A stretch of DNA of 64,000 nucleotides from an uncultured Planctomycetota bacterium (GCA_963752285.1 CAVVXN010000001.1:544001-608000); one strand, 5' to 3'. Shown: positions 1 through 20,270, counted from the first letter of the stretch. Made by a program: numbers and translations. Notes: a model not told the origin generated them from the letters alone.

Positions 1-162
1 CAGGACGTGATGACCTTCGTCCACGAGGGGAAGGACCCCCTCGGGAAGGTGCTCGGCCAGCACCGGCTCGCGAGCCAGGTCCCCACGTTCTGGCCGGAGG
101 TCGCCGCCCGGGGGTTCGCCGCCTCCCTCGTCCATCTGAAGGACGCGTACGCGGCCGCGTAA
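1..162 (+). CDS. 3' end of a hypothetical protein (partial, runs off window start)
   Basis: Frame 1 is open from base 1 (QDVMTFVHEGKDPLGKVLGQ...DAYAAA) to TAA at 160-162, with high-GC3 codon usage, and is followed by a hairpin. Confidence 0.6.
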   Translation, partial: QDVMTFVHEGKDPLGKVLGQHRLASQVPTFWPEVAARGFAASLVHLKDAYAAA

Positions 163-169
163 GTCGTGG

Positions 170-196
170 CCCGCCCGTTTCCAACGGGCGGGGTTT
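170..196 (+). terminator. Putative intrinsic terminator
   Basis: Perfect 10-bp stem CCCGCCCGTT-tcc-AACGGGCGGG followed by GTTT, 8 nt after the upstream stop. The U-tract is short. Confidence 0.5.
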
Positions 197-378: not shown

Positions 379-594
379 ATGGCGAAGCGGAGGTCGGTGG
401 CCGGGGTCGTGGGGCGGCTCGGACGGGCCCTCCACGGGCTCCACGCCGACGAGCGGGCGACCTCGGACGTGGAGTACATCCTCCTCACGGCCATGGTGGT
501 CCTCCCGCTCTTCGCCGTCCCTCCGCTCATCATGTCCGCGAACGTGGATTTCTTCGACCGGGTCGAGCCTTGGGTCGACCTCCCCTTCCCCTGA
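379..594 (+). CDS. Flp-like pilin 1 (71 aa)
   Basis: GGAGG RBS then ATG. Basic leader ...LHADERA|TSDVEYILL followed by a hydrophobic helix; E+5/Y+6 Flp motif; first gene of the Tad locus. Confidence 0.75.
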   Translation: MAKRRSVAGVVGRLGRALHGLHADERATSDVEYILLTAMVVLPLFAVPPLIMSANVDFFDRVEPWVDLPFP

Positions 595-629
595 TCCGTC
601 CGGGTGGGGGCGACACTCTAGGAGAACGC

Positions 630-863
630 ATGCTGACGAGGCAGAAGGTGGTGGACGCGCTGGAGCGCCTCCACCGAGACGAGCAGGGCGACGAGGGCGT
701 CAACAAGATCCTGATCATCGCGATGATCGTGATCCCCCTCGTGATCGTCCTGATCGCGTTCGGCGGGACGATCAAGGAATTCTTCGTCAAGGCCTGGGAA
801 GACCTGACCGGACACAGCGTGGGCGAGGCGACGTTCGGCTCCGGCGGCGGCACGGGTCCCTAA
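630..863 (+). CDS. Flp-like pilin 2 (77 aa, non-canonical)
   Basis: AGGAG RBS. ...LHRDEQG|DEGVNKILIIAMIVIPLVIVLIAFGGTIKEFF has typical Flp size and layout but lacks E+5. Confidence 0.7.
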   Translation: MLTRQKVVDALERLHRDEQGDEGVNKILIIAMIVIPLVIVLIAFGGTIKEFFVKAWEDLTGHSVGEATFGSGGGTGP

Positions 864-941
864 CGGCCGCTCGCGGGGCGGGCCGGGGGACCGGGAACGG
901 CTCCCCGGTCTCCCGACGCCATCGACTTCGGGAAGGCCTCC

Positions 942-1481
942 ATGGACGCCGGACTGCTGACCTTCGACCTCCCGCTCCTCGCGGTGGCGACCGCCGCCGC
1001 CGTGACGGACGTCCGGGAGGGAAAGGTCTACAACCGGCTCACCTACCCGGCGGTCCTGCTGGCCTTCGGCCTCCACGCCCTGGTCCGGCCGCCGGGTCTC
1101 GGACTCGGCGGGGCCGCGGAAGGCTTCCTCGTGGGTTTCGTCCCCATGTTCGTCGCCTACGCCGCGGGCGGCCTCGGCGGGGGCGACGTGAAGCTGATGA
1201 CCGCCGTGGGCACGTTCCTCGGGCCGTTGCTCGCGGTGTACGCGCTGCTCTACACCTTCCTGTCCGGAGCGGTCCTCTGCCTCATGCTGATCGTCTACCA
1301 GGAAGGCCCCGCCGGCCTCGGGCGACGCCTGCGCCACCTCGGCGCGGGTGAGGACGGGACCGGGCGCCTCGCGCTCCGGTTCCCCTTCGCCGCGGCGGTG
1401 TGGCTCGGGGTGGTCTGGGTCCTGGTCGAGCGGTACGTGGGGGCGAGCCTCGCCGACGTGCTCCTGAGGTCGGTGTCGTGA
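942..1481 (+). CDS. cpaA: Prepilin peptidase, A24 family (TadV/CpaA-like)
   Basis: TDVREGKVYN and GGGDVKL carry the two catalytic Asp motifs; polytopic membrane protein next to pilins. Confidence 0.9.
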   Translation: MDAGLLTFDLPLLAVATAAAVTDVREGKVYNRLTYPAVLLAFGLHALVRPPGLGLGGAAEGFLVGFVPMFVAYAAGGLGGGDVKLMTAVGTFLGPLLAVYALLYTFLSGAVLCLMLIVYQEGPAGLGRRLRHLGAGEDGTGRLALRFPFAAAVWLGVVWVLVERYVGASLADVLLRSVS

Positions 1482-2320
1482 CGCTCGCCGCCTCCCCGGT
1501 CGCCGGCCTCGGACCCGTGCTCGCGTCCGGGCTCGCCCGGCCGCTGCCCAGCGGGTTCTGGTGGTGCGTCGCGGGCCTGGTCGCCTGCGGGGGGGCCGGG
1601 CTCCTCGCCTTCTCGATCCTGCTCCGCCGCGTGCGCCTCGCGCGCGTGAGACGCCTCGCCGCCAGCGAGGACGGGACGACGATCGTCGAGTTCCCGTTCG
1701 CGATGCTCACGCTCGTCCTGATGACCACCCTCACGTGGCAGCTCGGGTTCATGGCGAGCGCGTACCTCGTCGTGGACTACGCGGCCTACGCGGCCGTTCG
1801 GGCGGCCATCGTCCAGATCCCGCCCAAGCGGAGCAACGACGAGCCGGCGAACAAGATCAAGGACATCTCGTTCAAGGGCTCCGACAAGGGCAGCGACATC
1901 GAGGACGCGGCGATCTTCGTGTGCTACCCGATCTCCGGGACGTACACGAACGCGGCGGCGGGCTCCGCGCAGATCCCCATCCTCGACGAGGTGAAGAAGG
2001 TGCCCGGCTGGGACACGGTCGCGAAGGCCTTGGGCCCGCTCACGTTCGCCCTGCGGTACGTGTACGCGATGGAGAACACGAGCGCGCGGCTCGTGGTGGA
2101 CGGCCAGGACTCCGGCGCGAAGGAGTTCTCCGCCGGCGATCTCCTGACCGTGCAGGTCGTCCACCAGTTCAGTCTGCGCGTACCGATCGCGGAGCGGCTG
2201 TTCGGGAAGCTCAGCTTCCCCGCGGGCTACACGACCGCCCTCGAGGCCAAGGCCTCGATGCTCTTCGAGGGCGCGAACGAGCAGGTGCCCGCCGACGCGC
2301 CCTCGGGGGCCCAGCCGTGA
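1478..2320 (+). CDS. TadE-like pseudopilin
   Basis: GTGA overlap with cpaA stop. SEDG|TTIVEFPF class III signal, TM helix, then VVDYAAYAAVRAA, typical of TadE. Confidence 0.8.
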   Translation: MTLAASPVAGLGPVLASGLARPLPSGFWWCVAGLVACGGAGLLAFSILLRRVRLARVRRLAASEDGTTIVEFPFAMLTLVLMTTLTWQLGFMASAYLVVDYAAYAAVRAAIVQIPPKRSNDEPANKIKDISFKGSDKGSDIEDAAIFVCYPISGTYTNAAAGSAQIPILDEVKKVPGWDTVAKALGPLTFALRYVYAMENTSARLVVDGQDSGAKEFSAGDLLTVQVVHQFSLRVPIAERLFGKLSFPAGYTTALEAKASMLFEGANEQVPADAPSGAQP

Positions 2321-3963
2321 CGCCCGGCTTCGACCCCTTCGACCGCTTGGACGGACCGCGCGACGCGCGCCCGGACCCGGACGCGGCGCTGCCGGCGCAC
2401 GCCGCGGGGGAGCGGGGCGGGCTCGTCGGCCTCCACCGGGACCGGCGGGCGCAGATCCTGCCCCTCGTCTTCTTCATGGGGATCGCGTTCTTCACGAGCG
2501 TCGTCCTCGTGCTGAACACCGGTCGGACCACGGTCCGGCGCATCCGCGCGCAGAACGCCGTAGACGCGGCCGTGGTGTCGGGCGCGAACGCCGTCGCGCG
2601 CGGCATGAACTACGTGGCGTCCAACAACATCTCGATCTCGAAGCTGCTCGCGACGGTCGTGATCCTCCGTGCGTTCGGGCCCGCGATCGACGACGCGAAC
2701 GCCACGCTCGACGTCTGGCAGGCGATCGGCGAGGCGCTGGAGGACATGGCCGCCGTGCCCTACGTGGGGCCCGCGCTGGCGGCTGCGGGCGCCGCCATCC
2801 TGGTCAAGGTCGAGATCGAACGGGCCATCCTCGAGGTCCTCGAGCCGATCGTGGACGGGCTGAAGGACGTGTGGGACGGGGACAACGAGAGCGGGGTCGC
2901 CTGGATCCTCATCCGCGCCCTCCACTACCTGGGCGTCGGCACGGTGTACGCCACGCCCGTCCTCGCCCAGTGGACGACCGTCAGCGTCTACAACAAGAAC
3001 GTCTCGCCGGAGAGCGGCGCCGCGTGGATGCTGCCGCTGTACCCGAACCTGCCCGCCTGCGAGGGCAAGTTCGCCGACTTCTACGACTGGACGAAACACT
3101 GGGTCGAGGAGATGGCCGACCCGATCTACATCGCGGGCTGGGCCCTCCTCACCCTCTCGATGTTCCCGCTCTGGTACAAGGCCCACCTCACGTCCGAGCT
3201 GAACCAACTCTTCACCGGGACGGGAACGGACACGAACGTGGACGACCCCGACACGAAGAAGATGCAGGAGCTGAACAAGGAGCTCGACAAGAAGAACGCC
3301 GAGCTGACCCAGCTCGAGAACGAGCGCGTGAAGCTCCAGGGGGAGCTGGACGACCTGAAGAAGCGCAAGGCCGATGGCGAGAAGGGTCTCGACGACGACA
3401 TCCAGAAGAAGCAGCAGGAGGTGACCGCGAAGGAGGGCGAGATCGAGAAGAAGCGCGACGAGATCAAGGACATCCAGGACCAGATCCAGGAGATCAACGA
3501 CCGCCGGACCCAGCAGGGCGGAAAGCCCCCCGACGACTTCAACGGCGACCTGGGCGGCATGCAGGGGTCGGCGCAGGACCGGGACTGGCCCCACCCGTGG
3601 CTCCTCGACGGCTCGAAGTACCCCGACTCCTTCTCGTACGTCGGGATCGGCTGGCGCACGCTCGGCACCCCGCTCGTCCCCGTCAAGTTCCAGAACCTGA
3701 TCTCGCAGGGTTTCACGTACGCCGCCGCACGCGTCTACAACAGCACGCAGGCCGACCTGTGGACCGCGGACTGGCGCGCGCGACTCGTCAAGGTGGACGC
3801 CAACATGCTGTCGAACCCGATCGGCACGCTCCCCCACAAGTGCGGGGAGCAGGGCGGCAGCGGAGGATCCGAGATCTCCCAGAACGGGCCCGACGGCCAG
3901 CCCGACGCGAACGGGCTCGCCGACCAGCTGAACACCTTCCTCGGCTTCCTGAACAAGCACTGA
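2317..3963 (+). CDS. TadG-like Tad-domain minor pilin with internal coiled coil
   Basis: GTGA overlap. DRRA|QILPLVFF-TM-...RAQNAVDAAVVSGA Tad N-terminal motif; K/E/Q-rich heptads at about 3250-3515; C-terminal DLWTADWRARL. Confidence 0.75.
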   Translation: MTPGFDPFDRLDGPRDARPDPDAALPAHAAGERGGLVGLHRDRRAQILPLVFFMGIAFFTSVVLVLNTGRTTVRRIRAQNAVDAAVVSGANAVARGMNYVASNNISISKLLATVVILRAFGPAIDDANATLDVWQAIGEALEDMAAVPYVGPALAAAGAAILVKVEIERAILEVLEPIVDGLKDVWDGDNESGVAWILIRALHYLGVGTVYATPVLAQWTTVSVYNKNVSPESGAAWMLPLYPNLPACEGKFADFYDWTKHWVEEMADPIYIAGWALLTLSMFPLWYKAHLTSELNQLFTGTGTDTNVDDPDTKKMQELNKELDKKNAELTQLENERVKLQGELDDLKKRKADGEKGLDDDIQKKQQEVTAKEGEIEKKRDEIKDIQDQIQEINDRRTQQGGKPPDDFNGDLGGMQGSAQDRDWPHPWLLDGSKYPDSFSYVGIGWRTLGTPLVPVKFQNLISQGFTYAAARVYNSTQADLWTADWRARLVKVDANMLSNPIGTLPHKCGEQGGSGGSEISQNGPDGQPDANGLADQLNTFLGFLNKH

Positions 3964-4580
3964 TGCGGACGACCCGACCCACGCCCCCGACCCCCCGGCG
4001 CACGAGGCGCGGCCGCGACCGCGGCTCGGCCACGGTCGAGATCATGCTCTCCGTGCCCTTCCTCGTGGTCTTCTCGCTCTTCGCGTTCGACTTCGCCCGG
4101 GGCTACCTCTCGGCGCAGCGCGGCCTCCGCGCGGCGCGGCAGGTCGCGTGGATGTACTCGCGACACCTCGACGACTCGAGCAAGCCCGACGTGCCGAACG
4201 ACCAGACGCTCCTCGCCACGCACTTCGACGGCAAGGGCGGCGCCGTGACGCACGCCACGTCCACGGAGCAGGAGAAGCTGCCCGGCCCCCTGTCGTTCCT
4301 GTCCGACGTCGGAGACGCGCTCAGCGACATCATGAACGTCTTCGACAACGACAGCCGTCTCGGCTCGTACTTCTCGTTCATGACGGGCAACATCGAGATG
4401 GAGAAGGGGACCGTGACGCAGGGCGTGACGGGCCTCTGGCGCTTCGCGCAGGGCACGACGATGACCCAGAACCACTGGGTCGCGCTCCGCTCCTGGCGCG
4501 AGGAGGATCCCGGCCGCCACGTCGGCTGGTGGGACCCGTTCGTCGCGATCGTGGACGCCATCACCCCCAAGTCGGACTGA
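3963..4580 (+). CDS. TadE/TadF-like pseudopilin
   Basis: TGATG overlap. RDRG|SATVEIMLSVPFLVVF...AARQVAW. Confidence 0.75.
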   Translation: MRTTRPTPPTPRRTRRGRDRGSATVEIMLSVPFLVVFSLFAFDFARGYLSAQRGLRAARQVAWMYSRHLDDSSKPDVPNDQTLLATHFDGKGGAVTHATSTEQEKLPGPLSFLSDVGDALSDIMNVFDNDSRLGSYFSFMTGNIEMEKGTVTQGVTGLWRFAQGTTMTQNHWVALRSWREEDPGRHVGWWDPFVAIVDAITPKSD

Positions 4581-4596
4581 GAGGGAGCCGAGCCCG

Positions 4597-5511
4597 ATGA
4601 CCGTGCCGTGGATCCCGCCGCCGGGGACGAAGCCGCGACCGGGGAACGTCGTGCTCATGGCGCTGACGGGCGCGCTCTTCGCCGCGGGCGCCGTGATGAT
4701 GGCGGGCTGGCTCAGGGACCGCGGCACGGCCCTCGACGCCGCGCCCCCGCCGCCGCCGCCCCAGGCGCGGTCCGTCGTAACGCGCCTCGACCCGAGGGTC
4801 GAAGCCTTCCTCGGCGGCGGCGTCTCGTGGGGGCCGGAAAAGCGCGACTGGTTCGGGCCGAGCCCCGCCGTGCTCGTGAGCGGCCACGCGGAGGCGTCGC
4901 CCCGCGAGGTCTTCCGCGCGATGGTGGGAGAGCCCCTCGACGACGAGGCCGTCCAGGCCGCGATCCGGAAGGGCCCGTCCGCGGCCGTGGCCCTCCGGAG
5001 CCAGCTCACGATCGGCGTGATGCCCCAGGGGGCGTTCCTCCTGCGTCTCGCGCCCGATCTCGACGCGGCGCGTCACGGGCGCCTGGCCACGGAGCCCGGC
5101 GCCGTCACGCTCGCGTTCCCGGCCGCGAGCGGCTGGGACTACGTGACGTGGGTGTTCCCACGCGGCCTCTCGCTCGACGGCCTGCCGGACGCCTACCGGG
5201 CCCCGCCGCGCGCGCTCGACGACCTCGGCGCCGCGGCGGTCGCGCGACTCGAGCCGGTGTTCCAGGTGAACGCCGGCGTGGGCGGCGGGCCGCGTACGGT
5301 CCTGTGCCGCGCCCGCGGGCGCGCGGGGGACGCGGTCTCCGAGGTGGCCGGCGCCCTGATCGGGACCGGGTGGACCTCGCGGTACGGAGAGGAGCACCAC
5401 GAGGGCGGCCTCGTGCGCGTGCTCGAGGACGGCCGCCGCCAGGTGTGGCTCGCGGCGGCGGACGAGGACCAGGACGGGGGCCTCGTGAGCGTGGTCGTGG
5501 GATCTCTCTAG
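4597..5511 (+). CDS. Hypothetical membrane-anchored protein in the Tad locus
   Basis: GAGGGAG RBS; single N-terminal TM followed by a Pro-rich linker; tightly packed between the pseudopilin and cpaB. Confidence 0.65.
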   Translation: MTVPWIPPPGTKPRPGNVVLMALTGALFAAGAVMMAGWLRDRGTALDAAPPPPPPQARSVVTRLDPRVEAFLGGGVSWGPEKRDWFGPSPAVLVSGHAEASPREVFRAMVGEPLDDEAVQAAIRKGPSAAVALRSQLTIGVMPQGAFLLRLAPDLDAARHGRLATEPGAVTLAFPAASGWDYVTWVFPRGLSLDGLPDAYRAPPRALDDLGAAAVARLEPVFQVNAGVGGGPRTVLCRARGRAGDAVSEVAGALIGTGWTSRYGEEHHEGGLVRVLEDGRRQVWLAAADEDQDGGLVSVVVGSL

Positions 5512-5525
5512 GACGGAGCGCTTCG

Positions 5526-6224
5526 ATGAAATCGAACAAGACGATCGTGATCGCCATCGTGCTGGGCGTGATCGCGGTGTACCTCGTGAACTCGCACGTG
5601 AGCGAACTCGAGACGAAGGCCGCCGAGCCGAAGGTGACCTTCTTCCAGGCCGCCGCCGACATCGCGCCCGGGCGCCTCGTGAAGGAGGCGCTGAAGCAGA
5701 AGCTGCTCGTCCCCTTGCGGGAGATCCCCGTCTCGTTCGCGAAGCACTACCCGCAGGCGATCGACGGGGACGAGTACTCGCAGTGGGCGGACAGCCAGAT
5801 CGTCCGGGCGATCCCCGCCGGCGAGTTCCTGCGCCTGTACCACGTGCAGGGCTCGAACGCGATGGAGCTCGCACGCATGATCCCGGCGGGCCAGACGACC
5901 GTCACGATCGCCGCGTCCCAGGAGACGGCGGTGGGATTCCTCGCCGCCCCGGGCGACCTGGTGGACGTGTACTACACGGTCCTCAAGAAGGACCCCACGA
6001 AGCCCGGCGGACAGGACGCCGAGGTCGTGCCGGTGGCCGAGAACATGACGATCTTCGCCGTGGACGACTACTACGGCACGAAGGCGGAGCTCGTCCGGCC
6101 GCGCGGCCAGGCGTACTCGTCCATCACCCTCGTGGGTCCCCGACCGGAGATCGACAAGGTGAGGGGCGCCACCCGTCTCGGGAAGCTCACCCTGGCCCTT
6201 CCCTCCCAGGCCCCCGCGCAGTGA
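5526..6224 (+). CDS. cpaB: Flp pilus assembly protein CpaB/RcpC
   Basis: N-terminal TM, SAF-like AAADIAPG...RAIPAGE segment, and GFLAPGDLVDV-type RcpC motif (GFLAAPGDLVDV). Confidence 0.8.
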   Translation: MKSNKTIVIAIVLGVIAVYLVNSHVSELETKAAEPKVTFFQAAADIAPGRLVKEALKQKLLVPLREIPVSFAKHYPQAIDGDEYSQWADSQIVRAIPAGEFLRLYHVQGSNAMELARMIPAGQTTVTIAASQETAVGFLAAPGDLVDVYYTVLKKDPTKPGGQDAEVVPVAENMTIFAVDDYYGTKAELVRPRGQAYSSITLVGPRPEIDKVRGATRLGKLTLALPSQAPAQ

Positions 6225-6267
6225 GCGCGTAGGCGACCTGGGCCGTCCGAGGAAGGAGGCTTCGCAC

Positions 6268-8142
6268 ATGGGCTTCGCGCTCCGCGTGTTCGACGGCGAG
6301 CGACAGACCGTCCGGGTCCAGCAGATCGACGCGACGAGCGTCAAGATCGGCCGCACGGAGGCATGCGACATCGTCCTCGCGAGTCCGTACGTGTCGCGCG
6401 AGCAGGCGGTCATCCGCGCGCTCGACGGCCGGTACGTCTTCGAGTCCGTGGGGCGCAACCCGAGCTTCGTGAACGGCAAGGAGATCCACTCGGGGCAGAC
6501 CGTCGAGGTCGAGCCCGACGACGAGATCCGGATCGCGGAGTTCTCGATCTACATCGAGGGGGCGAAGCGGCGGAAGGAAGACGAGTTCGACGTCGCGGGC
6601 GCGCTCGCCGCGATCGAGCTCGGGCTGCACTCGCGCCTCCTCGAGAGCGTGGATCTGCGCGAGCTCGGTCGGAGCGGCGTCTCGGAGGACACGAACCCGA
6701 AGCTCCGTCTCGCGCTGGAGGACCTGGTCCGCGCCGCCGTGCCGGAACAGGGCGGCGGGATGGCGCCGGAGGTGCTGGCGCACGCGCTCCGGGAGTGCCT
6801 GTACAGCGAGATCGTGCAGGAGGTCCTGGCCCGCGCGGCGGGGCCGGGGGGGGCCGACCAGACCGGCGGCTTCGCGGGAAAGCTCGACGCGATGCTCTCG
6901 ACGGTCGTGAACTCCTTCTGCAAGCGCCTCGAGATCGAGGGCACGAAGAAGTCGGTCCGGCAGGACCTGCGCCGCGTGGACCAGGGGTTCTCCGCCGTCT
7001 TCGACGCGTTCGTGGGCGGCGCGGCCCCGGAGCTCAAGACGCTCATCGTCCGCCGCTTCCTCACGCGCGAGATCATGAACCTCGTGTGCGGGTTCGGTCC
7101 CCTCCAGGACCTGCTCGAGCTCCCCAACACGAGCGAGATCATGGTGGTCCACAAGGACCTCATCTACATCGAGCGCGAGGGCGTCCTCGAGCGGCTCCAC
7201 CGCACGTTCATCACCGACGAGATCCTCGTCAGCGTGATTCAGCGCATCGTCGAGCCCCTCGGGCGTCGGATCGACCGCTCCACGCCGCTCGTGGACGCGC
7301 GCCTCCCCGACGGCTCCCGCGTGAACGCGGTGATTCCGCCGCTCGCCGTGAAGGGCCCCTGCCTCACGATCCGGCGGTTCTCGAAGACCCCGCTCACCGC
7401 CGCCGACCTCGTCCGCTTCGGGTCGCTGACCGAGCCGGCCGTCGAGTTCCTGAAGGCCTGCGTGCACGGGCGCAAGAACATGATCATCTCCGGGGGCACC
7501 GGTTCCGGCAAGACGACGCTCCTCAACGTCCTCTCGGCCTTCATCCCCGAGGACGAGCGGATCGTGACCATCGAGGACTCCGCCGAGCTGCAGCTCCGGC
7601 AGGCCCACGTCGTGACGCTCGAGACGCGGCCGCCGAACGTGGAGGGCAAGGGCGCGTACACGATCCGCGACCTGGTCCGCAACGCGCTGCGCATGCGGCC
7701 CGACCGCGTGATCGTCGGTGAGTGCCGCGGCGGCGAGTCGCTCGACATGCTCCAGGCCATGAACACGGGGCACGACGGTTCGCTCACGACCCTCCACGCG
7801 AACTCCCCCGAGGACGCCATGCTGCGCCTCGAGACGATGGTGCTGGAGGCCGTGGACCTCCCCGTCCGGGCGATCCGCAGCCAGATCGAGGCCGCCGTGC
7901 ACGTGATCGTGCAGGCGTCGCGGCTGGCGTCCGGGAAGCGCATGGTCACCCACATCTCCGAGGTGGTCGGCATGGACCCGGAGGACGGTCGCATCCTCAC
8001 GAACGACATCTTCGAGGAGCGGGACGGCCAGCTCCTGCAGAGCGGCTACCTGCCCACGTTCGTCGGGGACCTCGTGGACAAGGGGTACATCGATCCGGGC
8101 GTGCTCTTCGCCGCGTCCGTGGAAGAGGAGGCCTCCGCATGA
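6268..8142 (+). CDS. cpaF: FHA-domain-fused TadA/CpaF secretion ATPase
   Basis: N-terminal FHA (IGR...VSREQA...RNPSFVNG). Walker A GGTGSGKT, TIEDSAEL, LRMRPDRVIVGECRG, AMNTGHDGSLTTLHANS. Confidence 0.93.
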   Translation: MGFALRVFDGERQTVRVQQIDATSVKIGRTEACDIVLASPYVSREQAVIRALDGRYVFESVGRNPSFVNGKEIHSGQTVEVEPDDEIRIAEFSIYIEGAKRRKEDEFDVAGALAAIELGLHSRLLESVDLRELGRSGVSEDTNPKLRLALEDLVRAAVPEQGGGMAPEVLAHALRECLYSEIVQEVLARAAGPGGADQTGGFAGKLDAMLSTVVNSFCKRLEIEGTKKSVRQDLRRVDQGFSAVFDAFVGGAAPELKTLIVRRFLTREIMNLVCGFGPLQDLLELPNTSEIMVVHKDLIYIEREGVLERLHRTFITDEILVSVIQRIVEPLGRRIDRSTPLVDARLPDGSRVNAVIPPLAVKGPCLTIRRFSKTPLTAADLVRFGSLTEPAVEFLKACVHGRKNMIISGGTGSGKTTLLNVLSAFIPEDERIVTIEDSAELQLRQAHVVTLETRPPNVEGKGAYTIRDLVRNALRMRPDRVIVGECRGGESLDMLQAMNTGHDGSLTTLHANSPEDAMLRLETMVLEAVDLPVRAIRSQIEAAVHVIVQASRLASGKRMVTHISEVVGMDPEDGRILTNDIFEERDGQLLQSGYLPTFVGDLVDKGYIDPGVLFAASVEEEASA

Positions 8143-8993
8143 GCCTACTGGCGGTCGCCCAGGACATGCTCCCGACCGATGTCGTCGTGTTCCTCGCGGC
8201 GGCGGCGATCGTGTTCGCCGTGAGCGGTCGCATCGGGACCTGGATGGAGCGACGCAGGGCGCGCGCGCTCTCTCTCCAGCTCCAGCTGCGGCAGGAGGGC
8301 GGGGTCGGCTTCCAGGTGTACGGCCCTCCGGTCATCGCGCTCTTCATCTTCGCCGTCACGGTCGCCATGGGGCTCTCGATCCTCGGGCTGATCGTGGCGT
8401 TCGCGGTGTTCAAGGCGCTCGACGCGCTGCCCAAGATGCTCGCGAAGCGGAGACACCGCCGGTTCGACGAGCAGCTCCCGGACGCGCTCACGGCCCTCGC
8501 GAACAGCCTGAAGGCCGGGCTCTCGCTGCCGCAGGCGGTGGCGCTCGTGGCGCGCGACATGCCGTCCCCGACCCGCGAGGAGTTCGCGGAGATCCAGCGG
8601 TCCTACGAGATGGGGAAGCCCATCGAGCAGGCCGTGGACGACGCCCGCGACCGGGTGCGCAGCCGCAACTTCGAGCTCGCCGTGACCGCCTTCCGCGTCG
8701 GGAAGGAGCGGGGCGGCAACCTCGCGGACGTGTTCGAGAAGATCTCCGACTCCATCCGCGAGATCTGGCGACTCGAGGAGCACATCCGTACCGTCTCGAC
8801 GCAGGGCCGTTCGAGCGCGCGCTTCATGACGTTCATGCCGGGCGTGTTCCTGGTCCTGCTCTACTTCATGGACTCCGAGTCCACGCTCCTGATGTTCAAG
8901 GACCCCGTCGGGCTGGTGATCCTGAGCATCGTGCTGGTTTTCAACCTGATCGGCCACCTCTGGATCCGGAAGATCCTGAGCGTGGACATCTGA
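8139..8993 (+). CDS. tadB: TadB (T2SS F family) inner-membrane platform protein
   Basis: ATGA overlap. FDEQLPDAL...SLKAGLSL...GGNLADVF...QGRSSARF. Confidence 0.88.
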   Translation: MSLLAVAQDMLPTDVVVFLAAAAIVFAVSGRIGTWMERRRARALSLQLQLRQEGGVGFQVYGPPVIALFIFAVTVAMGLSILGLIVAFAVFKALDALPKMLAKRRHRRFDEQLPDALTALANSLKAGLSLPQAVALVARDMPSPTREEFAEIQRSYEMGKPIEQAVDDARDRVRSRNFELAVTAFRVGKERGGNLADVFEKISDSIREIWRLEEHIRTVSTQGRSSARFMTFMPGVFLVLLYFMDSESTLLMFKDPVGLVILSIVLVFNLIGHLWIRKILSVDI

Positions 8994-9009
8994 GGGGAGG
9001 AGGAAGGCC

Positions 9010-9903
9010 ATGCTGCTCGCAGCCGACGTGGTGATCTTCCTGGCCGTGTTCCTCGTGGTCATGTCGGTGGGCAGGATCGCGGAGTTCCGCTACGACTACA
9101 CCCTCGTGGCCGACATCCTGGCGGAGCGCCGCCGGAAGGCCCTCGACGAGGCGCCGCTCCGCCGCCTCCTCGACCCGCTCGTCGTCGGGCTGTCCATCGT
9201 CGTGCGGCGCCTCGGGCTCGCGGGGCTCCGCGCCCGCGTGCAGCACGAGCTCATGCAGGCGGGGAACCCCTGGGGCTACCGGCCCGAGGAGTACATCGCG
9301 TGGTCGATGTCCCTCGCGCTCGTGGTCGGCGGGGGCGTCGCGGGAGCCCTTCTGGTCACGGGCCGCTTCAACGTGTTCTTTCCCCTGCTCGCCACGGCGA
9401 TCGTGTACCTGGCCACGATGCAGGGGCTCAAGTCGCGCGGCGACCGCCGCCGCGTCGAGCTCGAGCGCCAGCTTCCCTACTTCCTCGACCTGACGTCGCT
9501 CTCGATGGGCGCGGGCGCCACGTTCCTGCAGGCGTGCGAGTCGGCGATCCAGCGGCCCACGAAGGGCCCCCTCGAGGAAGAGGTCGAGCTCATGCTCCGC
9601 GAGATCCAGGCCGGCACGCCCATGGGGCAGGCGCTCCAGAACATGACGAAGCGCATCGAGAGCGCCGAGCTCGCCCAGATGATCCAGGCGGTGCACCAGG
9701 GCGAGGAGCTCGGCACGCCCCTCGTCCGGGTCTTCGAACAGCAGGCGGACCTGAACCGCTACCGGCGCAGCAAGCGGGGCGAGCAGATCGCCGCGAAGCT
9801 CCCGAACCGCCTCGCCGTGCCCACTGTGTTCCTCATGCTCGCCGTGTTCCTGCTGCTGTTCGGCCCGATCATCATCAAGGCGACGCGTGGAGGGCTGGCC
9901 TGA
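9010..9903 (+). CDS. tadC: TadC (T2SS F family) inner-membrane platform protein
   Basis: ERQLPYFLDL...ELGTPL...RRSKRGEQIAAK...FLLLFGP; strong RBS. Confidence 0.88.
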   Translation: MLLAADVVIFLAVFLVVMSVGRIAEFRYDYTLVADILAERRRKALDEAPLRRLLDPLVVGLSIVVRRLGLAGLRARVQHELMQAGNPWGYRPEEYIAWSMSLALVVGGGVAGALLVTGRFNVFFPLLATAIVYLATMQGLKSRGDRRRVELERQLPYFLDLTSLSMGAGATFLQACESAIQRPTKGPLEEEVELMLREIQAGTPMGQALQNMTKRIESAELAQMIQAVHQGEELGTPLVRVFEQQADLNRYRRSKRGEQIAAKLPNRLAVPTVFLMLAVFLLLFGPIIIKATRGGLA

Positions 9904-10889
9904 TGTCGAAGGTCAAGGACGCACAGGAGAACGCGCTCCACACGATGCTCCGCATCGAGGCGCCCCAGGGGCGCGTCTCGCTCGTGGACCTCATGGGGGA
10001 CTCGTATCTCGTCGGTCGAGGGGACCCCACCGGGGTCAGCCGCGTCGACTTCCAGATCCCCGAGGACGAGTTTCTGTCGCGCGTCCACGCCAAGATCGAG
10101 CGGGACGGGGAGGGTGGGTACCTCGTCGAGAACCTGAGCCCGAACGGCACCCTGGTGGACGGCGCGCTGATCAAGCGGCCGACGCTGCTCAAGGGCAAGA
10201 CGAAGATCGAGATCGGTCAGGGGACGACGCTCACCTTCCTCGTCGTGACGGCCGACGAGCGGAAGCGGCTGTTCGAGGAACAGTCGGGCGTCAAGGAGCG
10301 CCAGGCCGAGACCGGCGGCGGTCTCGAGGCGCCCGAGAAGAAGTCGTTCCTGCAGCGACCCGTCTTCCTCGGGCTCGTCGTGTTCTACGGGCTCCTCGCG
10401 GTCGTGGTGCTGTCGATGCTGGGCCAGAAGAAGGCCACGGTGCTCGACCCGGGCAAGGGCCCGTACTTCGGCGACTTGATGCACGGTCCCGTCTCGACGC
10501 AGCGTCCGGAGATCGACGCCGACGCGATCGCGGACACGATGTGGAAGGAAGCGCTGGCGAAGCACGGCGAGCCGGTCGTGGACGAGGGCGGTCACGCGTA
10601 CATGCTGGTGCTGGCCGCGCAACGCGTCGCGGGCGTGCTGGGCTATCCGACGCTCCAGGCCGCCCTCGACAAGCGCGAGGGGTTCGCGCAGAAAGCGAAG
10701 CTCGTGCTCGACGACCTCGAGAAGCGGGTCCAGGCCGACCACGAGCTCGGCCAGAAATTCATCGACGGGCGCCACTGGGCGCTCGCCTACGACGTGTACA
10801 AGCGGATGGCCGCCGCGGTCCCCGACAACCGCTCCAAGGTCCGGGAGTTCGCCCTGGACCGCGTGGAGAGGCTGGGGCCGATGCGCTGA
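9903..10889 (+). CDS. FHA-domain single-pass membrane protein
   Basis: TGATG overlap. LVGRG...LSRVHAKI...LSPNGTLVDG is a canonical FHA; one TM; helical, possibly TPR-like, C-terminus. Confidence 0.85.
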   Translation: MSKVKDAQENALHTMLRIEAPQGRVSLVDLMGDSYLVGRGDPTGVSRVDFQIPEDEFLSRVHAKIERDGEGGYLVENLSPNGTLVDGALIKRPTLLKGKTKIEIGQGTTLTFLVVTADERKRLFEEQSGVKERQAETGGGLEAPEKKSFLQRPVFLGLVVFYGLLAVVVLSMLGQKKATVLDPGKGPYFGDLMHGPVSTQRPEIDADAIADTMWKEALAKHGEPVVDEGGHAYMLVLAAQRVAGVLGYPTLQAALDKREGFAQKAKLVLDDLEKRVQADHELGQKFIDGRHWALAYDVYKRMAAAVPDNRSKVREFALDRVERLGPMR

Positions 10890-11030
10890 CCGTCGGGCGC
10901 TTGACAGGGACCGGCGGTTCGTGGTCAACGGAGGTTTCGCGCCGTCCTCGGGCCTCGGGGCCCGCGAGCGGGACGACGCGGGGGGCGCCCCGCCCGAGGG
11001 GGCGACCCAGGTCGATGGGAGAACGAAATC

Positions 11031-13904
11031 GTGGGGCAGACGTTCGACGCCGATCGCGATCTGACGGGCGAGGAGGTGGGGGGGCGGTACGTGCTCCTCG
11101 CGCGCATCTCCTCGAGCCCTCGCTCGTCGGTGTACCAGGCCCAGGACACCAAGCTCATGCGCCGCGTCGCCGTGCGCTTCCCGGGGCGCGAGGCGCTCGC
11201 GGCGGCGGGGTTCGCCGAGCGGTTCCAGCGGGTCGTCCGCTCGGTCTCGGACCTCCAGCACGACGGGCTCGTCGGCGTCGTGGACTTCGGCGAGCACGGC
11301 GAGCTCCCGTACGCCGTCGTCCACCACGTGGGGGGCGAGAGCCTGGCCCAGCGCCTCGGGGCGAGGCAGGCCCCCCAGAGCCCGGCCGAGGTCGTCGCGT
11401 GGATCCACCCGGTCGCCGCCGCGCTCGACTACGTGCACGAGAAGGGCGAGGCGCACGGTGCCGTGGGGCCGAGGACGGTCCTCCTCGACAAGCCGCCCTC
11501 CACGCGGGCCTACCTGGCCGATTTCACCGTCCGCCGGGCGCTCAGCGACCAGCGACCCGACCCGAAGGACGATCAGCGCGGGCTCGCCGCCGCGGCCCTG
11601 GCCGCCCTCACGGGGAAGGCGCCGCTGGCCCCGGGCCAGACCGCGCCGTCGCTCTCCGGCGTCGTCCCCGACGCCGCCGCCAAGGCCCTGGCCCGGGCCC
11701 TCGACCCGGACCGCGCGAAGCGGTTCGAGAGCGCGGGCGCCTTCGCGGCGGCGTTCAGCTCGGGTCTCGCCGCCACATCCGCCACGCCGAAGGGCGGCGC
11801 GCCGAAGGGCGGCGCCAAGGCCGCGGCCAAGGGGGCGCCGATGGCGACGGTGTCGGACTCCGACACCCTCGGCTTCGGCCGGCCGCGGCCGGCCGCGGCG
11901 GAGGCCCCCGCGCCCGCCCCCGCGGGCGACGGGGACCCGCACGCGACGCGCGGCATCGTCATGCGCGGGCGCAAGAAGAGCAGCATGCCGATGGTGCTCC
12001 TCCTCGTGGTGCTGGTCGTGGGGGCGATCGCGTTCGTCGCCGTCCAGAACGGGGGCAGCGGGAACCAGCAGAAGAAGGTGGACGACAACGTCGCCCCGAC
12101 GCTCAAGGTCGTCCAGCCGGTGGACGGCTTCCGCACGAACGCGCCCGACGCCACGGTCGCGGGCACCTGCGACGATCCGAAGGCCATCCTCACCGTGGAC
12201 GACGCGACGGTTCCCATTCAGCCGGACGGGACGTTCCGCACGGTCACTCGCATCCCCAAGGAGGGCGAGCAGACGATCCGCGTGAAGGCGACCGACCAGG
12301 CCGGGAACGCCACCCTCCAGACGGTGAGCGTCGTGCGCGACTCCAAGCCGCCGACGCTGACCATGCTCGGGCCCGACGCGAAGACCCTCATGACGCCCAC
12401 GACGGCGCCCACGATCACGGTCGAGGGCCAGGTCGGCGAGCCGGACGCCGAGGTCGAGGTCGCCGGCCAGAAGGTGACCGTGGACCCCGACGGCAAGTTC
12501 AAGGCCGAGGTCGAGATCCCCGACGACGGCGCGAACACGATCACGATCGTGGCGCGCGACGACCTGGGCAACGAGTCGAAACAGCAGGTGGTGGCCCATC
12601 GGCGGCTGGTCATCTGCTGCGACACGCTCGCCATCACCTCGCCGCTCGACGGGACGGCGACCCGGGAGTCGTCCATCGAGGTGACGGGGCTCATGGAGGA
12701 CCCGCGCGCGAGCGTGAAGGTGAACGGCCAGGCCGTGACCGTCGGACGCGACGGCGTGTTCCGGGGCACGGTGCCGCTCGAGGGGGAGGGCGAGCACGAG
12801 ATCGTCGTGGAGGCCTCCGACCCGAAGGGCCACCACGGGACCGCGCGCGTGCGCATCACCCGAGACCTGACCCCTCCCGTACTCCAGATCACCGAGCCGA
12901 AGTTCTGGGTCCGCAACGCGGATCGCGTCCTCGGGACGTCGTCGGGTCCGCTCAACCTGAGCGGGACGGTGGCGGACGGGACACGGTGCAGCCTGTACGT
13001 GAACGGGCTGCTCGGGAGCGTGACGGGGAAGACGTGGAACGCCACGATCAACCTCTCCGTCGGGGAGCAGCTCGTGAACATCTGGGCCGTGGACGCGGCG
13101 GGGAACCGCTCGGACCCCCTCGTGTTCAAGGTCACGATCCCGCGCGCCACCATCTCGGGTCTCACCTACAAGGGCGAGAACGAGAAGGGGTATCAGGAGT
13201 TCACGCTCGACAAGGACCCGACCGTCGTGCTCGTCCTCGTCCCCGAGGGCGGGTACGTGCGTGGCGGCATGATCGGCGACCCCGACGTGCAGCCCGACGA
13301 GATGCCCCAGCAGCGCATCATCATCGGGGCGTTCCTCGTCGCGAAGGGCGAGACGACGTGGTCCCAGTACCTCCGGTTCTGCAAGGACAGTGGCCACGCG
13401 CTCCCTCCGGGCGTGGAGGAGAAGGGTCTGCTCCTCGACCACCCCGTGAACCAAGTCACGTTCGACGACGCCATGGCCTACTGCAAGTGGGCCGGACTGC
13501 GACTCCCCACCGAGAGCGAATGGGAGCGGGCCGTCCGCTTCCGTTCCGAGGACACGATCTGGCCGTGGGGGTCCAAGTGGGACCCGAAGGCGGCGAACAT
13601 GGCCGGCATCCGCGGCAACACCACTTCCGTGTCCGCGTACCCCGCGACCGGCGACCTGCTCCTCCTCGACGCGGCGGGCAACGTGTCCGAGTGGTGCGCG
13701 GACTGGTACGCCGCGGACGCCTACAGCGAGATGCCCGTGAAGGATCCGCAGGGCCCGAAGAGCGGGACGAAGCGCGTCGTCCGCGGCGGGAGCTGGCGTG
13801 ACAAGTCGGAGCGCGGCCGCTGCTCGGACCGGGAGGGCGAAGATCCCTCGGCCCGTTCGAACTGGATCGGCTTCCGCGTGGCGGCGAGCGTGGGCGCGAA
13901 GTGA
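11031..13904 (+). CDS. Degenerate kinase-like domain + TM + Ig-like repeats + FGE-sulfatase (SUMF1) domain protein
   Basis: N-terminus follows PknB layout (GGRY...VYQAQDTKLMRRVAVR) with lost catalytic motifs. After the TM come about four beta-rich repeats (e.g. ATDQAGN, ARDDLGN, AVDAAGN). C-terminus has HPVNQV, RLPTESEWE, GNVSEW, RGGSW, GFRV. Confidence 0.85.
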   Translation: MGQTFDADRDLTGEEVGGRYVLLARISSSPRSSVYQAQDTKLMRRVAVRFPGREALAAAGFAERFQRVVRSVSDLQHDGLVGVVDFGEHGELPYAVVHHVGGESLAQRLGARQAPQSPAEVVAWIHPVAAALDYVHEKGEAHGAVGPRTVLLDKPPSTRAYLADFTVRRALSDQRPDPKDDQRGLAAAALAALTGKAPLAPGQTAPSLSGVVPDAAAKALARALDPDRAKRFESAGAFAAAFSSGLAATSATPKGGAPKGGAKAAAKGAPMATVSDSDTLGFGRPRPAAAEAPAPAPAGDGDPHATRGIVMRGRKKSSMPMVLLLVVLVVGAIAFVAVQNGGSGNQQKKVDDNVAPTLKVVQPVDGFRTNAPDATVAGTCDDPKAILTVDDATVPIQPDGTFRTVTRIPKEGEQTIRVKATDQAGNATLQTVSVVRDSKPPTLTMLGPDAKTLMTPTTAPTITVEGQVGEPDAEVEVAGQKVTVDPDGKFKAEVEIPDDGANTITIVARDDLGNESKQQVVAHRRLVICCDTLAITSPLDGTATRESSIEVTGLMEDPRASVKVNGQAVTVGRDGVFRGTVPLEGEGEHEIVVEASDPKGHHGTARVRITRDLTPPVLQITEPKFWVRNADRVLGTSSGPLNLSGTVADGTRCSLYVNGLLGSVTGKTWNATINLSVGEQLVNIWAVDAAGNRSDPLVFKVTIPRATISGLTYKGENEKGYQEFTLDKDPTVVLVLVPEGGYVRGGMIGDPDVQPDEMPQQRIIIGAFLVAKGETTWSQYLRFCKDSGHALPPGVEEKGLLLDHPVNQVTFDDAMAYCKWAGLRLPTESEWERAVRFRSEDTIWPWGSKWDPKAANMAGIRGNTTSVSAYPATGDLLLLDAAGNVSEWCADWYAADAYSEMPVKDPQGPKSGTKRVVRGGSWRDKSERGRCSDREGEDPSARSNWIGFRVAASVGAK

Positions 13905-15218: not shown

Positions 15219-18200
15219 GTGCCCCTCGACGCGTTCCTCGACCCGAGCTGCGGCTGCCTCGTCCTGGCGAACGACTCGGACGTCTACGATACGGTGCTCC
15301 GGCGCGCCGTCGAGACGGCGAGCCTCTCGGACGGCCGGTCGCTCGTCCCGGTCCGGGGCGATCCCGCCGACCCCGACTCCGTGTTCGCCGACGAGACCCT
15401 CCGCGCGCTCGAGTGGGGGGTGGCGATGATCGTGGACCTCGTCGGTACGGTTCCCGACGTCTTCCGACTCGTCCGGTGGCACGCCCGCGCCCGCACCCGG
15501 AGCGTCCTGCTGCTCCGACGGGGCCGGACCGCGCTCCCCTTCGAGGTCCACGAGCTCCCGGTCCGGCCGTACGAGCCCAGCGACCTCGAGGGACGGCCCG
15601 CCACCCGCACCCGCGTCGCGACGTGGGCGAGCGCCGCGGCCGCAGCCCGCGCCGACGAGGGCCCTGCGAACGTCCGGCTCACGCGGCTCCGCGACGCGCT
15701 CGCGGTCCGGCGCCGTCGCGAGCAGAACGGCGTGTACGACGCTCTCGTCCTCGCCGACCGCGACGTGCTCGAGGGGAACGCGCCCGGCGCGCTCCGTGCG
15801 ATGGACCACGCGCTGGCCGCCGAGCCGACGGCGCCCGACCTGCTGCTGAGGACCGCGCTGCTCCTGCGCGAAGGCGCGCGCTACCCCGAGGCGGCGGAGC
15901 TCCTGGAGCGCGCCGTCCGCTCGGCGCCGGCGCGCGCCGCGTGCTGGCGGGAGCTCGGGATCGCGCGCGACCGCGCCGGCCTCCCCGGTGCCGAGGACGC
16001 GCTGCGCCGCGCGGTCGCGATCACGGAGGACTACGAGGCGCTCGTGTCCCTCGCGCTGCTTTGCGCGCGGAATGAGACGTCGGACGACGAGCCCGCGCGC
16101 CTCCTCGAGCGCGCCATCGACGTCGCCGAGGGCCAGCTGAACCTCGTTCTGCCCGCGCTCGTGCACCGCGCGGGCCGCGAGGGGCGCATCCGGCTGACGA
16201 ACCCCGAGCGAGAGCGCGTGCTCCGGGTGCTCGAGATCCGCGCCGGACAGGCGCTCGGGGACCCCGCCGAGGACGCACCCTGGAGCCACTTCGACGCGGC
16301 CCGCGCGCACCTCCTCCTGGGCGATGGCGCGGCCGCGCTCGCGGTCGTGAGCGCGGCGCGACCCCACCTGCACGCCGCCTGGAACGCCGACACCTTCGCC
16401 CGCAGCCTGGACGCGCTCGAGCGCGCGGGCGCCGGGGTCGGGCCGCTCCGTGAGGTCCTGGGCCTCCGCGCGCGCACCGTCCGGACCGTCGGGCCGGTCG
16501 TGCCCGTCCCGCCCCGCTTCACCGTGGCGGCGCGTCCGCCGGCGTGGTTCGCCGAGAACGTCCCGTGCATGGCGGCGTGCCCGGTCGGGACCGACGCCGG
16601 GGCGTACGTGCACCACCTCGCGGAGGGGCGCTACGCGGAGGCGTTCCACGCCGCGCGCGCGCCCAACCCCTTCGCCTCCGTGTGCGCGCGCGTGTGCGCC
16701 GCGCCGTGCGAGGACGCGTGCCGGCGCGGGCGCGTGGACGAGCCGGTGGCGATCCGGCCGCTCAAGCGGTTCCTGACCGAACGCTTCGGGGCCGAGAGCC
16801 CCGACAACCGCGTCGGACAGGTGCTGGCCGCGGACCGGGCGCCGTGCATCGAGGGCGAGGCGTACGGCAGTCACCTGAGGAAGATGGGGGGCCCCGCGCC
16901 GGGGACCGGACCGAAGGTCGTGATCGTCGGCGGCGGGCCCGCCGGGCTCGCGTGCGCGCACGACCTCGCGCTGCTCGGCTACCGGCCGACGGTGTTCGAG
17001 GCCTCGAACGCGCTCGGCGGGATGATCCGCCACGGGATCCCGGTGTACCGCTTGCCGCGCGAGCTCATCGACCGCGAGATCGACGAGATCCTCCGCCTGG
17101 GCGTCGAGGTCCGTCTCGAGTGCGCCCTCGGCCGCGACCGCACGCTCGAGAGCCTCCTCGCGTCCGAGTACGAGGCCGCGTTCCTCGCCTCCGGCGCGGG
17201 TCGGGGGCGATTCCTCGACGTGGAGGGCGCGGACCTCGACGGCGTCGTTCGCGCGATCGAGTACCTGATCAACGTGAACCGCGGCTACAAGGTCGAGCTC
17301 GGCCAGCGGGTCGTGGTGGTCGGCGGCGGGAACGTCGCGCTGGACGTCGCGCGCACGGCGCGCCGCGGACGCCCGCCGGCGGACGCCGGCGCCGGGCGCT
17401 CGCTCACGGATCTCGGCGGCGCGCTGCCCACGCGCTTCCTCCGGTCCGCCTTCCGCGGCGACGAACGCGAGGTCCACGTCGTCGCACGCCAGCCCATGGG
17501 CGGGTGGCCCGCGGAGCGGAGCGTGCACGGCGCCGAGGAGCTCATGGAGGCGCGTCGCGAGGGCGTCGTCTTCCATCCCCTGCGCGGTGTGCGCCGCATC
17601 CGGGGCGAAGACGGGCGCGTGGCGGGCGTCGAGCTCGCCGAGGTCGTGCAGATCCGCGACGCGTCCGGGCGGTACGCGCCGTCCTACGGCGCCCACGCCG
17701 CCGAGTCGATCGCCTGCGACACGGTGGTCCTCGCGGTCGGGCAGGAGCCGGAGCTCGACTACCTCGAGGGAACGCGCTCGCTCGCGCGCACGAAGGACGG
17801 GCTCGTCGAGGTGGACCGCGCGACGCTCGCGACGAGCCTGCCCGGCGTGTTCGCGGGCGGGGACGCCGCGTTCGGGCCGCGAACCCTGATCGAGGCCGTG
17901 GCCGACGGCAAGCGTGCGGCGCGCGGGATCCACGCCTTCCTCCGCTCGGCCGCCAGCGCCGGGCCGCCGGCGCGGCACGTCCGCTTCACGGAGGTCCCGC
18001 CGCGGGCGGTCCCCACCGAGGCGGGGTACGACGCGATCGAGCGCGTCGCGCCCCCGTCCTCGGGCCTCGACCGCCGGACGGGCATCGCGGAGGTGGAGTC
18101 GGGGTACGACGAGGCGGAGGCGAGGCGGCAGGCGGCCCGGTGCCTCGTCTGCCACGTACAGACCGTGTACGACGGCTCGCGGTGCATCGCCTGCGGCCGG

Positions 18201-20259: not shown

Positions 20260-20270
20260 GGGCACCGGCC

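Follow-up and report, generated by a model that had tools for sequence, protein, structure and literature searches.

A 64-kb window of DNA from an uncultured planctomycete (genome C1:544001-608000; "the window" is this whole stretch) opens with a Tad (Flp) pilus gene cluster which, to judge from its gene content, is both real and complete and is a conserved, undescribed form of a known machine. We consider it likely that the cluster specifies a distinct planctomycete subtype of the type IVc (Tad/Flp) pilus machine, with assembly most likely switched by threonine phosphorylation, because the FHA residues needed for such a switch are intact, kinases are inherited together with the cluster and the positioning protein TadZ is missing from it. 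The parts are of known kinds; their combination, which is conserved across planctomycete families, is one that we did not find in the open-access literature searched: two CpaF motors, an FHA-containing motor (g9) together with an FHA membrane adaptor (g12), a receptor (pseudo)kinase with immunoglobulin (Ig)-like and FGE domains (g13), no TadZ and no secretin. Nor did that literature hold a description of planctomycete Tad/CpaF systems, in agreement with an earlier remark that none was known from this lineage, or of two CpaF paralogues in one tad locus.

As commonly held, a Tad machine has one bifunctional motor, is positioned by TadZ and, in diderms, exits through a secretin, and the module breaks all three rules. 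It would couple a pilus motor to Ser/Thr signaling, and it offers a natural system in which to study FHA control and the role of a second CpaF, and in which to learn by what route, if any, a type IV filament without a secretin gets through the outer membrane.

Two motors in a conserved gene module

The G+C content of the window (~72%) made raw lists of open reading frames useless for gene calling, and genes were called from a frame plot of third-codon-position GC combined with inspection of start codons; other very GC-rich loci were re-called by third-position GC. Between 379 and 13904 this gave 13 co-directional genes on the + strand, g1 to g13. A preliminary description of this DNA had listed the genes of the interval and the overlaps that join them, and the frame plot and Pfam recover every gene where it had been placed, as well as all of the overlaps (GTGA at 1478 and 2317, TGATG at 3963 and 9903, ATGA at 8139). 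Its starting point for the cluster, position 379, needed correction, as the gene for a second CpaF-type ATPase, TadA2, lies upstream and is followed, further out, by a divergent gene for a Ser/Thr kinase with a cyclic nucleotide monophosphate (cNMP)-binding domain. The flanks are unrelated, with redox genes after 13904 and with NrfD and ferredoxin genes further upstream of the cNMP-kinase. Most of the features by which a Tad system is recognized are present: Flp pilins, an A24 peptidase, CpaF/TadA with TadB and TadC, TadE/TadG minor pilins and RcpC/CpaB.

The larger motor, g9 (6268..8142, +), is FHA-TadA, a class III CpaF motor ATPase of 624 aa in which an N-terminal FHA domain (residues 25-89, 50.9 bits) is joined to a complete CpaF NTD-CAD core (Pfam T2SSE, residues 277-550, 215 bits); it aligns to the solved C. 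crescentus CpaF over residues 259-582 with E 7.8e-102 and with its catalytic motifs intact. TadA2 is a CpaF-type ATPase of 397 aa that has no FHA domain, and its gene (C1:542969-544162, +) reaches into the window with its 3' end, at 1..162. It scores 193.7 bits for T2SSE and E 1.9e-92 to the same solved CpaF, and the Walker A, Asp-box, Walker B and His-box motifs all align.

In a quick IQ-TREE phylogeny of the ATPase core (89 rows, 369 columns), g9 fell within a seven-row, all-FHA Planctomycetota clade of Phycisphaerae, Pirellulaceae and Planctomycetaceae sequences, with full support in the Shimodaira-Hasegawa approximate likelihood-ratio test (SH-aLRT 100). Planctomycetota is also the label of the nearest named homologues, at 77% identity for g9 and 55% for g7, and the probable planctomycete origin first proposed for this DNA therefore stands. 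TadA2 grouped with the second ATPases of loci L004, L005, L051, L008, L019, L031 and L061 in a separate, long-branched eight-row clade (support 100), and is therefore an old paralogue rather than a recent duplicate. One record titled Anaerolineales (L007) has its FHA-TadA inside the Planctomycetota clade, next to a Phycisphaeraceae sequence, and is either a mis-binned contig or a transfer.

The module is conserved as a unit. In a genome of the same order, G027, all 14 genes from TadA2 to g13 are collinear with the window (tblastn of fetched DNA); G003 has FHA-TadA, TadB, TadC, g12 and g13 followed by a soluble kinase gene, and the contig pieces of G017 agree with the gene order of the window. 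Among more distant planctomycete loci, L004 runs TadA2, two Flp, peptidase, TadE, Pkinase-TPR, TadG, two unassigned genes, CpaB-like, FHA-TadA, TadB, TadC and an FHA protein; L006 and L051 run CpaB, FHA-TadA, TadB, TadC, an FHA protein and then a Pkinase with a CarboxypepD_reg domain; and L005 begins with an FGE-domain protein and continues with TadA2 and two Flp onward. In seven of the nine planctomycete loci that extend that far, a second FHA frame comes straight after TadC, and the one in L004 is homologous to g12 along its length (267 columns, hhalign 98.5%); the post-TadC gene of the Polyangia locus L019 is not homologous to g12. The preliminary description had made its reading depend on the FHA and kinase genes being conserved neighbors, and this is what they proved to be.

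Within Planctomycetota the distribution is patchy. Among 40 relatives, the full-length FHA motor was found in G017 (69% identity), G027 (67%) and G003 (81%, cut by the contig end), with distant FHA-TadA copies in G036 and G038, and full-length g13 orthologues occurred only in G027, G017, G010 and G003. The module was not found in G001, a genome of the same genus that is 80% complete, nor in 22 of 24 genomes of the same family. Absence within the genus combined with presence within the order at 67% motor identity suggests loss or transfer. A further 300 sampled Planctomycetota genomes yielded 17 with a full-length FHA-containing match; in G200, G148, G291 and G073 the open frame around the FHA-TadA match was flagged as containing one or two in-frame stops. 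Several carriers of the motor are single-contig genomes, among them G185, G199 and G036.

FHA domains, kinases and proposed control by phosphothreonine

Two FHA domains are encoded in the locus, and the phosphothreonine-binding residues of both are intact as judged from alignments. In the g9 domain Arg29 and Ser43 are invariant in 79/79 homologues, a count limited to these two residues since the Asn column of the motor alignment is misaligned by one position. The domain was detected by Pfam; a phmmer search of the same region against solved structures gave no match at E<=0.01. The second domain forms the N-terminal part of g12 (9903..10889, +; FHA, 45.3 bits), which continues into a membrane helix and an all-helical C-terminal domain. 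Here the GR, SR and NGT motifs are invariant in all 24 members, and the set including SRxH is invariant or nearly so. The g12 family is small, with 16 representatives at E<=1e-30 among 1.84 billion. Its FHA domain aligns to that of Mycobacterium FhaA, and in a confident structural model (predicted local distance difference test, pLDDT, 89.7) the FHA domain, a linker, a membrane helix at residues 153-173 and the helical domain can be distinguished. The FHA part superposes on solved FHA-phosphopeptide complexes, and FHA matches filled the Foldseek list obtained with the whole model.

The third component of the putative switch is g13 (11031..13904, +), a receptor-like protein of 957 aa with a kinase-like domain (Pkinase, 24.8 bits, below cut-off), a membrane helix, four Glucodextran_B Ig-like repeats, a Big_6 domain and an FGE-sulfatase domain (149 bits). 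In a motif alignment of the window copy with four orthologues and two active kinases, the window copy has lost its glycine loop, the VAIK Lys is replaced by Arg, HRD has become HGA and DFG has become DFT, and the activation segment is deleted. By these motifs g13 is a true pseudokinase in this genome, and the preliminary description had identified it correctly as such. Three of five copies, those of G027, G017 and G010, keep the glycine loop, the VAIK Lys, HRD, DFG and APE; the copy in G003 is likewise degraded (Lys to Arg, HRG, ECC). The ancestral kinase of the module is g13 itself, with a cytoplasmic kinase domain and, outside the cytoplasm, an Ig stalk and an FGE/lectin-like sensor.

Where g13 is dead, another kinase is at hand. 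The protein encoded upstream of TadA2, with cNMP_binding and Pkinase domains (181.5 bits), has intact HRDLKPSN and DFG motifs and is predicted to be active, as is a soluble 326-aa Pkinase whose gene immediately follows g13 in G003. Within the stretches of DNA fetched at these loci, an adjacent soluble active kinase was found in 2/2 genomes with a dead g13 and in 0/3 with an active g13. This small sample suggests that the g13 receptor became a scaffold or sensor, with a soluble kinase supplying catalysis, and the decay of a receptor kinase to a pseudokinase beside a soluble kinase would provide a testable case of division of labor. More generally, almost all related loci have a Hanks-type kinase accompanying the module, a Pkinase gene lying inside or adjoining the locus in L004, L006, L051, G027, G003 and G036. 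Taken with the intact FHA residues, these conserved kinases argue for the wiring of a Tad apparatus to Ser/Thr phospho-signaling that was suspected from the outset.

Full-length relatives of g13 were absent from a metagenome scan, in which all 80 loci kept match only the FGE domain (query residues ~680-957). For the N-terminal kinase-like domain of g13 (residues ~10-175), by contrast, this genome and each of the 40 relatives searched contain many paralogues, one of them within the window at 59606-61564 (-), with its domain at ~60935-61366; by sequence similarity, these paralogues are a large expansion of (pseudo)kinase receptors.

A positioning ATPase was not evident: a search for TadZ that was confined to the 15 proteins of the locus gave no ParA/MinD/CbiA-type match. 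From these elements and from the known roles of the families, a mechanism can be proposed. The A24 peptidase g3 would mature the two Flp pilins (g1 and g2) and the three TadE/TadG-type minor pilins (g4-g6), TadB and TadC (g10 and g11) would form the inner-membrane platform, and the CpaF-type hexameric motor g9 would polymerize the fiber, with CpaB (g8) and g7 expected on the periplasmic side. A soluble kinase, here the cNMP-gated enzyme encoded upstream of TadA2, may phosphorylate a threonine on the juxtamembrane segment of g13 or on a platform component, and the FHA domains of g12 and TadA could then dock at the phosphothreonine, such that the motor would be recruited or activated where the sensor perceives its cue. 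Docking of this kind would stand in for the missing TadZ/CpaE positioning protein. TadA2, having no FHA domain, would lie outside phospho-control and might serve in retraction or basal assembly. For the cell, such a pilus might provide adhesion, surface sensing or capture.

Several observations weigh against such a switch. The structural His46 of the g9 FHA domain is Gln in the window, as it is in 6/79 homologues, and the linker of g9 (residues 95-262) contains no Ser or Thr conserved among 19 close homologues. FHA domains are common in this genome (19 matches), and L007 and L178 have no second FHA gene after TadC. The pairing of a soluble kinase with a dead receptor comes from two genomes, and the DNA fetched from G027 and G017 shows no cNMP-kinase adjoining the locus. 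The locus contains no PP2C phosphatase, the three PP2C_2 matches of the genome lying on other contigs or far away. The absence of a secretin from the locus leaves the crossing of the outer membrane unexplained, and the public sequencing runs retrieved were eight DNA runs with word shares <=0.17, with no RNA run listed for the locus.

Some of these points would fit FHA domains that act as phosphorylation-independent docking modules, replacing TadZ/CpaE and tethering the motor to the platform, with the neighboring kinases serving other pathways. Plain docking would be compatible with the lack of TadZ and of a phosphatase in the locus, with Gln in place of His46 in the motor and with the catalytic death of g13 in the window. 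The FHA regions of g9 and g12 also give sub-threshold matches (25.5 and 22.4 bits; cut-off 33.2) to the family of the cytoplasmic domain of YscD, a ring protein of type III secretion, and this FHA-like domain works without phospho-ligands. Plain docking would not account for the invariance of the phosphate-contacting Arg and Ser in 79/79 motors and 24/24 relatives of g12, for the co-inheritance of a Hanks kinase across planctomycete families, with activity predicted for 3/5 g13 orthologues, or for the presence of another active kinase beside the locus where g13 is dead. On balance we think phosphorylation-independent docking unlikely, and prefer control by threonine phosphorylation.

Relationship to known pilus and secretion machines

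The module shares with the Caulobacter Cpa and Aggregatibacter Tad systems its Flp pilins, A24 peptidase, TadE/F/G-type proteins, CpaB/RcpC, CpaF/TadA and TadB/TadC. Classical Tad loci also encode a CpaC/RcpA secretin, a TadZ/CpaE positioning ATPase and a pilotin. The window departs from them in lacking both a secretin and TadZ and in having two motors and FHA/kinase wiring; the available part of a preprint on the classical system describes a single bifunctional motor for both extension and retraction (bioRxiv 10.1101/616128).

The missing secretin is a general feature of the planctomycete loci. With a hidden Markov model (HMM) built locally from nine secretins, none was detected in 12 planctomycete loci (0/12) or anywhere in C1:530001-560000, as against 6/6 Myxococcota loci, and Pfam gave no Secretin match among the locus proteins. 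The genome does have six secretin genes outside the locus, of which four have no T2SSE ATPase beside them, and the CpaC-type N-terminal domain (T2SS-T3SS_pil_N) was not found anywhere in the genome. The absence of a secretin would be explained if the locus built a periplasmic pseudopilus, a type II secretion-like piston or uptake device that never crosses the outer membrane; the lack of a CpaC-type domain would agree with this, and two motors would suit a push-pull device. However, CpaB, which partners the secretin in classical systems, has been retained, and one of the secretins encoded elsewhere could be shared. Two Flp pilins with three tip-type minor pilins are moreover the normal kit of an external fiber, and the locus has no cargo gene. 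We regard a purely periplasmic device as very improbable, and continue to favor a phospho-controlled pilus.

A further parallel is offered by uncharacterized two-ATPase FHA-Tad loci in metagenome-assembled genomes of Myxococcota/Polyangia (L008, L019, L031, L060 and L061), in which peptidase, TadE, TadG, TadE, an unassigned gene, CpaB, FHA-TadA, TadB and TadC follow each other as in the window. L008, L019, L031 and L061 have a second, FHA-less CpaF of the deep TadA2 clade (seen by Pfam in L008 and L019), and L019 has a kinase nearby, as does the window. They differ in encoding a short secretin (by Pfam in L008 and L019, by the secretin HMM in all five) and in placing TadA2 downstream, and in L008 the FHA partner is a double-FHA plus TPR protein. 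It is conceivable, if unlikely, that planctomycetes and, with a secretin, some Polyangia share a distinct, fourth style of Tad machine with two dedicated CpaF motors, one gated by phosphothreonine by way of its FHA domain and an FHA membrane adaptor and the other an ungated retraction or counter-motor; the planctomycete fiber, lacking a secretin, would then either use a new route across the outer membrane or stay within the enlarged periplasm, where it would work as a retractile device for capture or uptake under the direction of a receptor (pseudo)kinase.

The preliminary description had taken the FHA domains as a sign of a Kil-like machine, possibly for contact-dependent attack or adhesion, which as a prey-attack machine would be a functional homologue of Myxococcus Kil. 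FHA-CpaF fusions, however, are published and widespread. The 80 genome loci examined gave 87 CpaF-type reading frames, and a locally built FHA HMM found the domain on 24 of these, its carriers being Planctomycetota, Myxococcota, beta- and gammaproteobacteria, Lentisphaerota, Spirochaetota and others, and dozens of FHA plus T2SSE proteins of ~620-630 aa were returned by a database search. Class III CpaF, with the architecture FHA-IDR-3HB-NTD-CAD, is described mostly from betaproteobacteria, with Achromobacter xylosoxidans CpaF as its representative, and the available portions of the paper defining it (Yen et al., 2025, PMC12019362) mention neither an FHA partner nor a kinase nor a second motor. 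The domain architecture of g9 is the same, and the planctomycete motors differ in forming their separate, fully supported clade. The fusion is thus neither special in itself nor specific to Kil, which corrects the idea that FHA wiring alone signals a predatory Kil machine.

The case for Kil does not end with the FHA fusion. In the available portions of the published accounts, Kil comprises the FHA-fused motor KilF, the peptidase KilA, the secretin KilC and FHA proteins (Seef et al., 2021, PMC8460266; Herrou et al., 2025, PMC12075869), KilF (mxan_3107) belonging to a seven-gene cluster (PMC8460266, PMC12075869), and killing depends on a type III secretion system without a needle (PMC12075869). 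As far as those portions go, the window has in common with Kil an N-terminal FHA domain on the motor, a further FHA protein and the absence of TadZ (PMC8460266), a proposed upstream signaling cascade, and TadE/F/G-type minor pilins, which, including a large TadG with a variable insert, correspond to the parts of Kil that recognize prey (PMC12075869). By the same accounts Kil has features of its own, namely a single CpaF-type ATPase, a short secretin beside the motor, a double-FHA protein, two clusters and a type III partner. In the window, by contrast, one cluster holds two CpaF paralogues, a single-FHA membrane protein of another architecture and a receptor (pseudo)kinase but no secretin, and the 89%-complete genome gave no match to FHIPEP (SctV/FlhA), the export gate of type III secretion or of flagella.

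The motor tree, proposed earlier as a check on the Kil reading, speaks partly for and partly against it. The sister of the g9 clade is a Myxococcota/Polyangia clade (L008, L019, L031, L060 and L061; SH-aLRT 88). The FHA-CpaFs of Citreicoccus (L050) and Archangium (L032), which we took as KilF orthologues (L050 by seven-gene synteny with the published Kil cluster), fall in the best tree with those of beta- and gammaproteobacteria, next to Bdellovibrionota and apart from g9. On the other hand, an approximately unbiased (AU) test did not reject a tree in which the seven motors from planctomycetes form a clade with L050 and L032 (p 0.359), and the ATPase core alone therefore leaves a specific relationship to KilF possible. 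The surroundings of the motors differ: the L050 cluster consists of two unknowns, an FHA protein, a peptidase, a secretin, the FHA-ATPase and, after KilF, a 702-aa double-FHA protein, and the window has neither a secretin beside its motor nor a double-FHA protein. The patchy occurrence of the module in Planctomycetota likewise argues against such a role, and we know of no predatory trait in the planctomycete lineages that carry it. We conclude that a Kil-like predation machine is highly unlikely.

An analogue for the proposed switch, as opposed to the pilus itself, is the control of type VI secretion in P. aeruginosa, where a membrane receptor Hanks kinase and an FHA protein gate the assembly of an envelope machine. 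Its Thr-phosphorylation proteins are the kinase PpkA, the reader Fha1 and the phosphatase PppA. The machine is a different one, and the window locus has no phosphatase and a dead receptor kinase. The same analogy was drawn for Kil, in the available text of Seef et al. (PMC8460266).

Pilins, platform and flanking features

The two genes at the start of the + strand series, g1 (379..594, 71 aa) and g2 (630..863, 77 aa), have no Pfam match and are considered Flp-like because of their size, position, hydrophobic core and a processing motif conserved in orthologues. They represent two classes, f1 and f2. In g1 the predicted cleavage is A/TSDVEY (slash, cleavage site), with G/SSDVEY or G/SSEVEY in orthologues; Ala thus stands at -1, as against Gly in the orthologues of G027, G017 and L004. 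The f1 class combines G/xxxxEY with a C-terminal LPFP or IPFP, common to the orthologues in G027, G017, L004, L051 and L019, and this ending closes the f1 pilins of most related loci. The g2 motif is HRDEQG/DEGVNK, with Asn-Lys in place of the usual Glu5-Tyr6, a variant kept in G027 and G017; L008 retains the canonical EY. Orthologues of f2 occur in G027, G017, G036 and L004, the L004 copy being a sub-threshold Flp1_like match.

The prepilin peptidase g3 (942..1481, +; Peptidase_A24, 65.5 bits) is of the TadV/CpaA type, 179 aa long and without a methyltransferase domain. Three minor pilin genes follow: g4 (1478..2320, +; TadE, 24.6 bits), which is TadE-like and has an orthologue 39% identical in G027; g5 (2317..3963, +; Pfam "Tad", 23.3 bits), a large TadG-like protein of 548 aa with orthologues in G027 and G017; and g6 (3963..4580, +), a second TadE-like protein whose own TadE match (19.5 bits) is below cut-off and whose positional counterpart in L008 scores 50 bits. 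Within g5, residues ~310-400 (window 3253-3516) form a Lys/Glu-rich coiled-coil insert of ~90 residues with weak matches to coiled-coil families, visible also as a sharp dip in second-position GC, which may be a variable tip module.

Between the minor pilins and the motor lie g7 (4597..5511, +) and the CpaB/RcpC periplasmic component g8 (5526..6224, +; RcpC, 57.2 bits). With one membrane helix, an alpha/beta C-terminal domain and no Pfam family, g7 appears lineage-specific: seven homologues besides the protein of the window were found, one of them named Planctomycetota, and with hhalign the genes occupying this position in L008 and L005 showed no homology to it. In a model of pLDDT 69, the fold of the C-terminal domain matched PA1624 (Z 9.5) and, at Z ~7, generic alpha/beta periplasmic folds of the DcrB/Mog1/PsbP kind, and an Atlas search for look-alikes returned only unnamed clusters, mostly planctomycete. 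The platform proteins TadB (g10, 8139..8993, +; T2SSF, 63 bits) and TadC (g11, 9010..9903, +; T2SSF, 52 bits) are encoded directly after the FHA motor.

Directly after the TadA2 stop codon, at 170..192 (+), there is a 10-bp GC-rich, terminator-like hairpin; the segment 160-215 folds with -27.6 kcal/mol (z -2.5), and none of 200 shuffled versions folded as well. A scan for consensus promoters and terminators reported no promoter-like site and no terminator-like site on the + strand, leaving the hairpin at 170-192 unflagged. TadA2 may be transcribed separately from the Flp-to-g13 genes, despite the conserved order of TadA2 followed by Flp.

Elsewhere in the window, 15219-21161 (+) encodes a 1068-aa fusion of ferredoxin and pyridine-nucleotide-disulfide oxidoreductase, a Rieske protein, cytochrome b and a multi-heme cytochrome c, and is preceded by a gene for a heme-binding domain on the opposite strand. 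Further along, 32126-33640 (+) encodes a 504-aa protein with a match to T2SSG (type II pseudopilin-like), adjoining a sulfatase gene.

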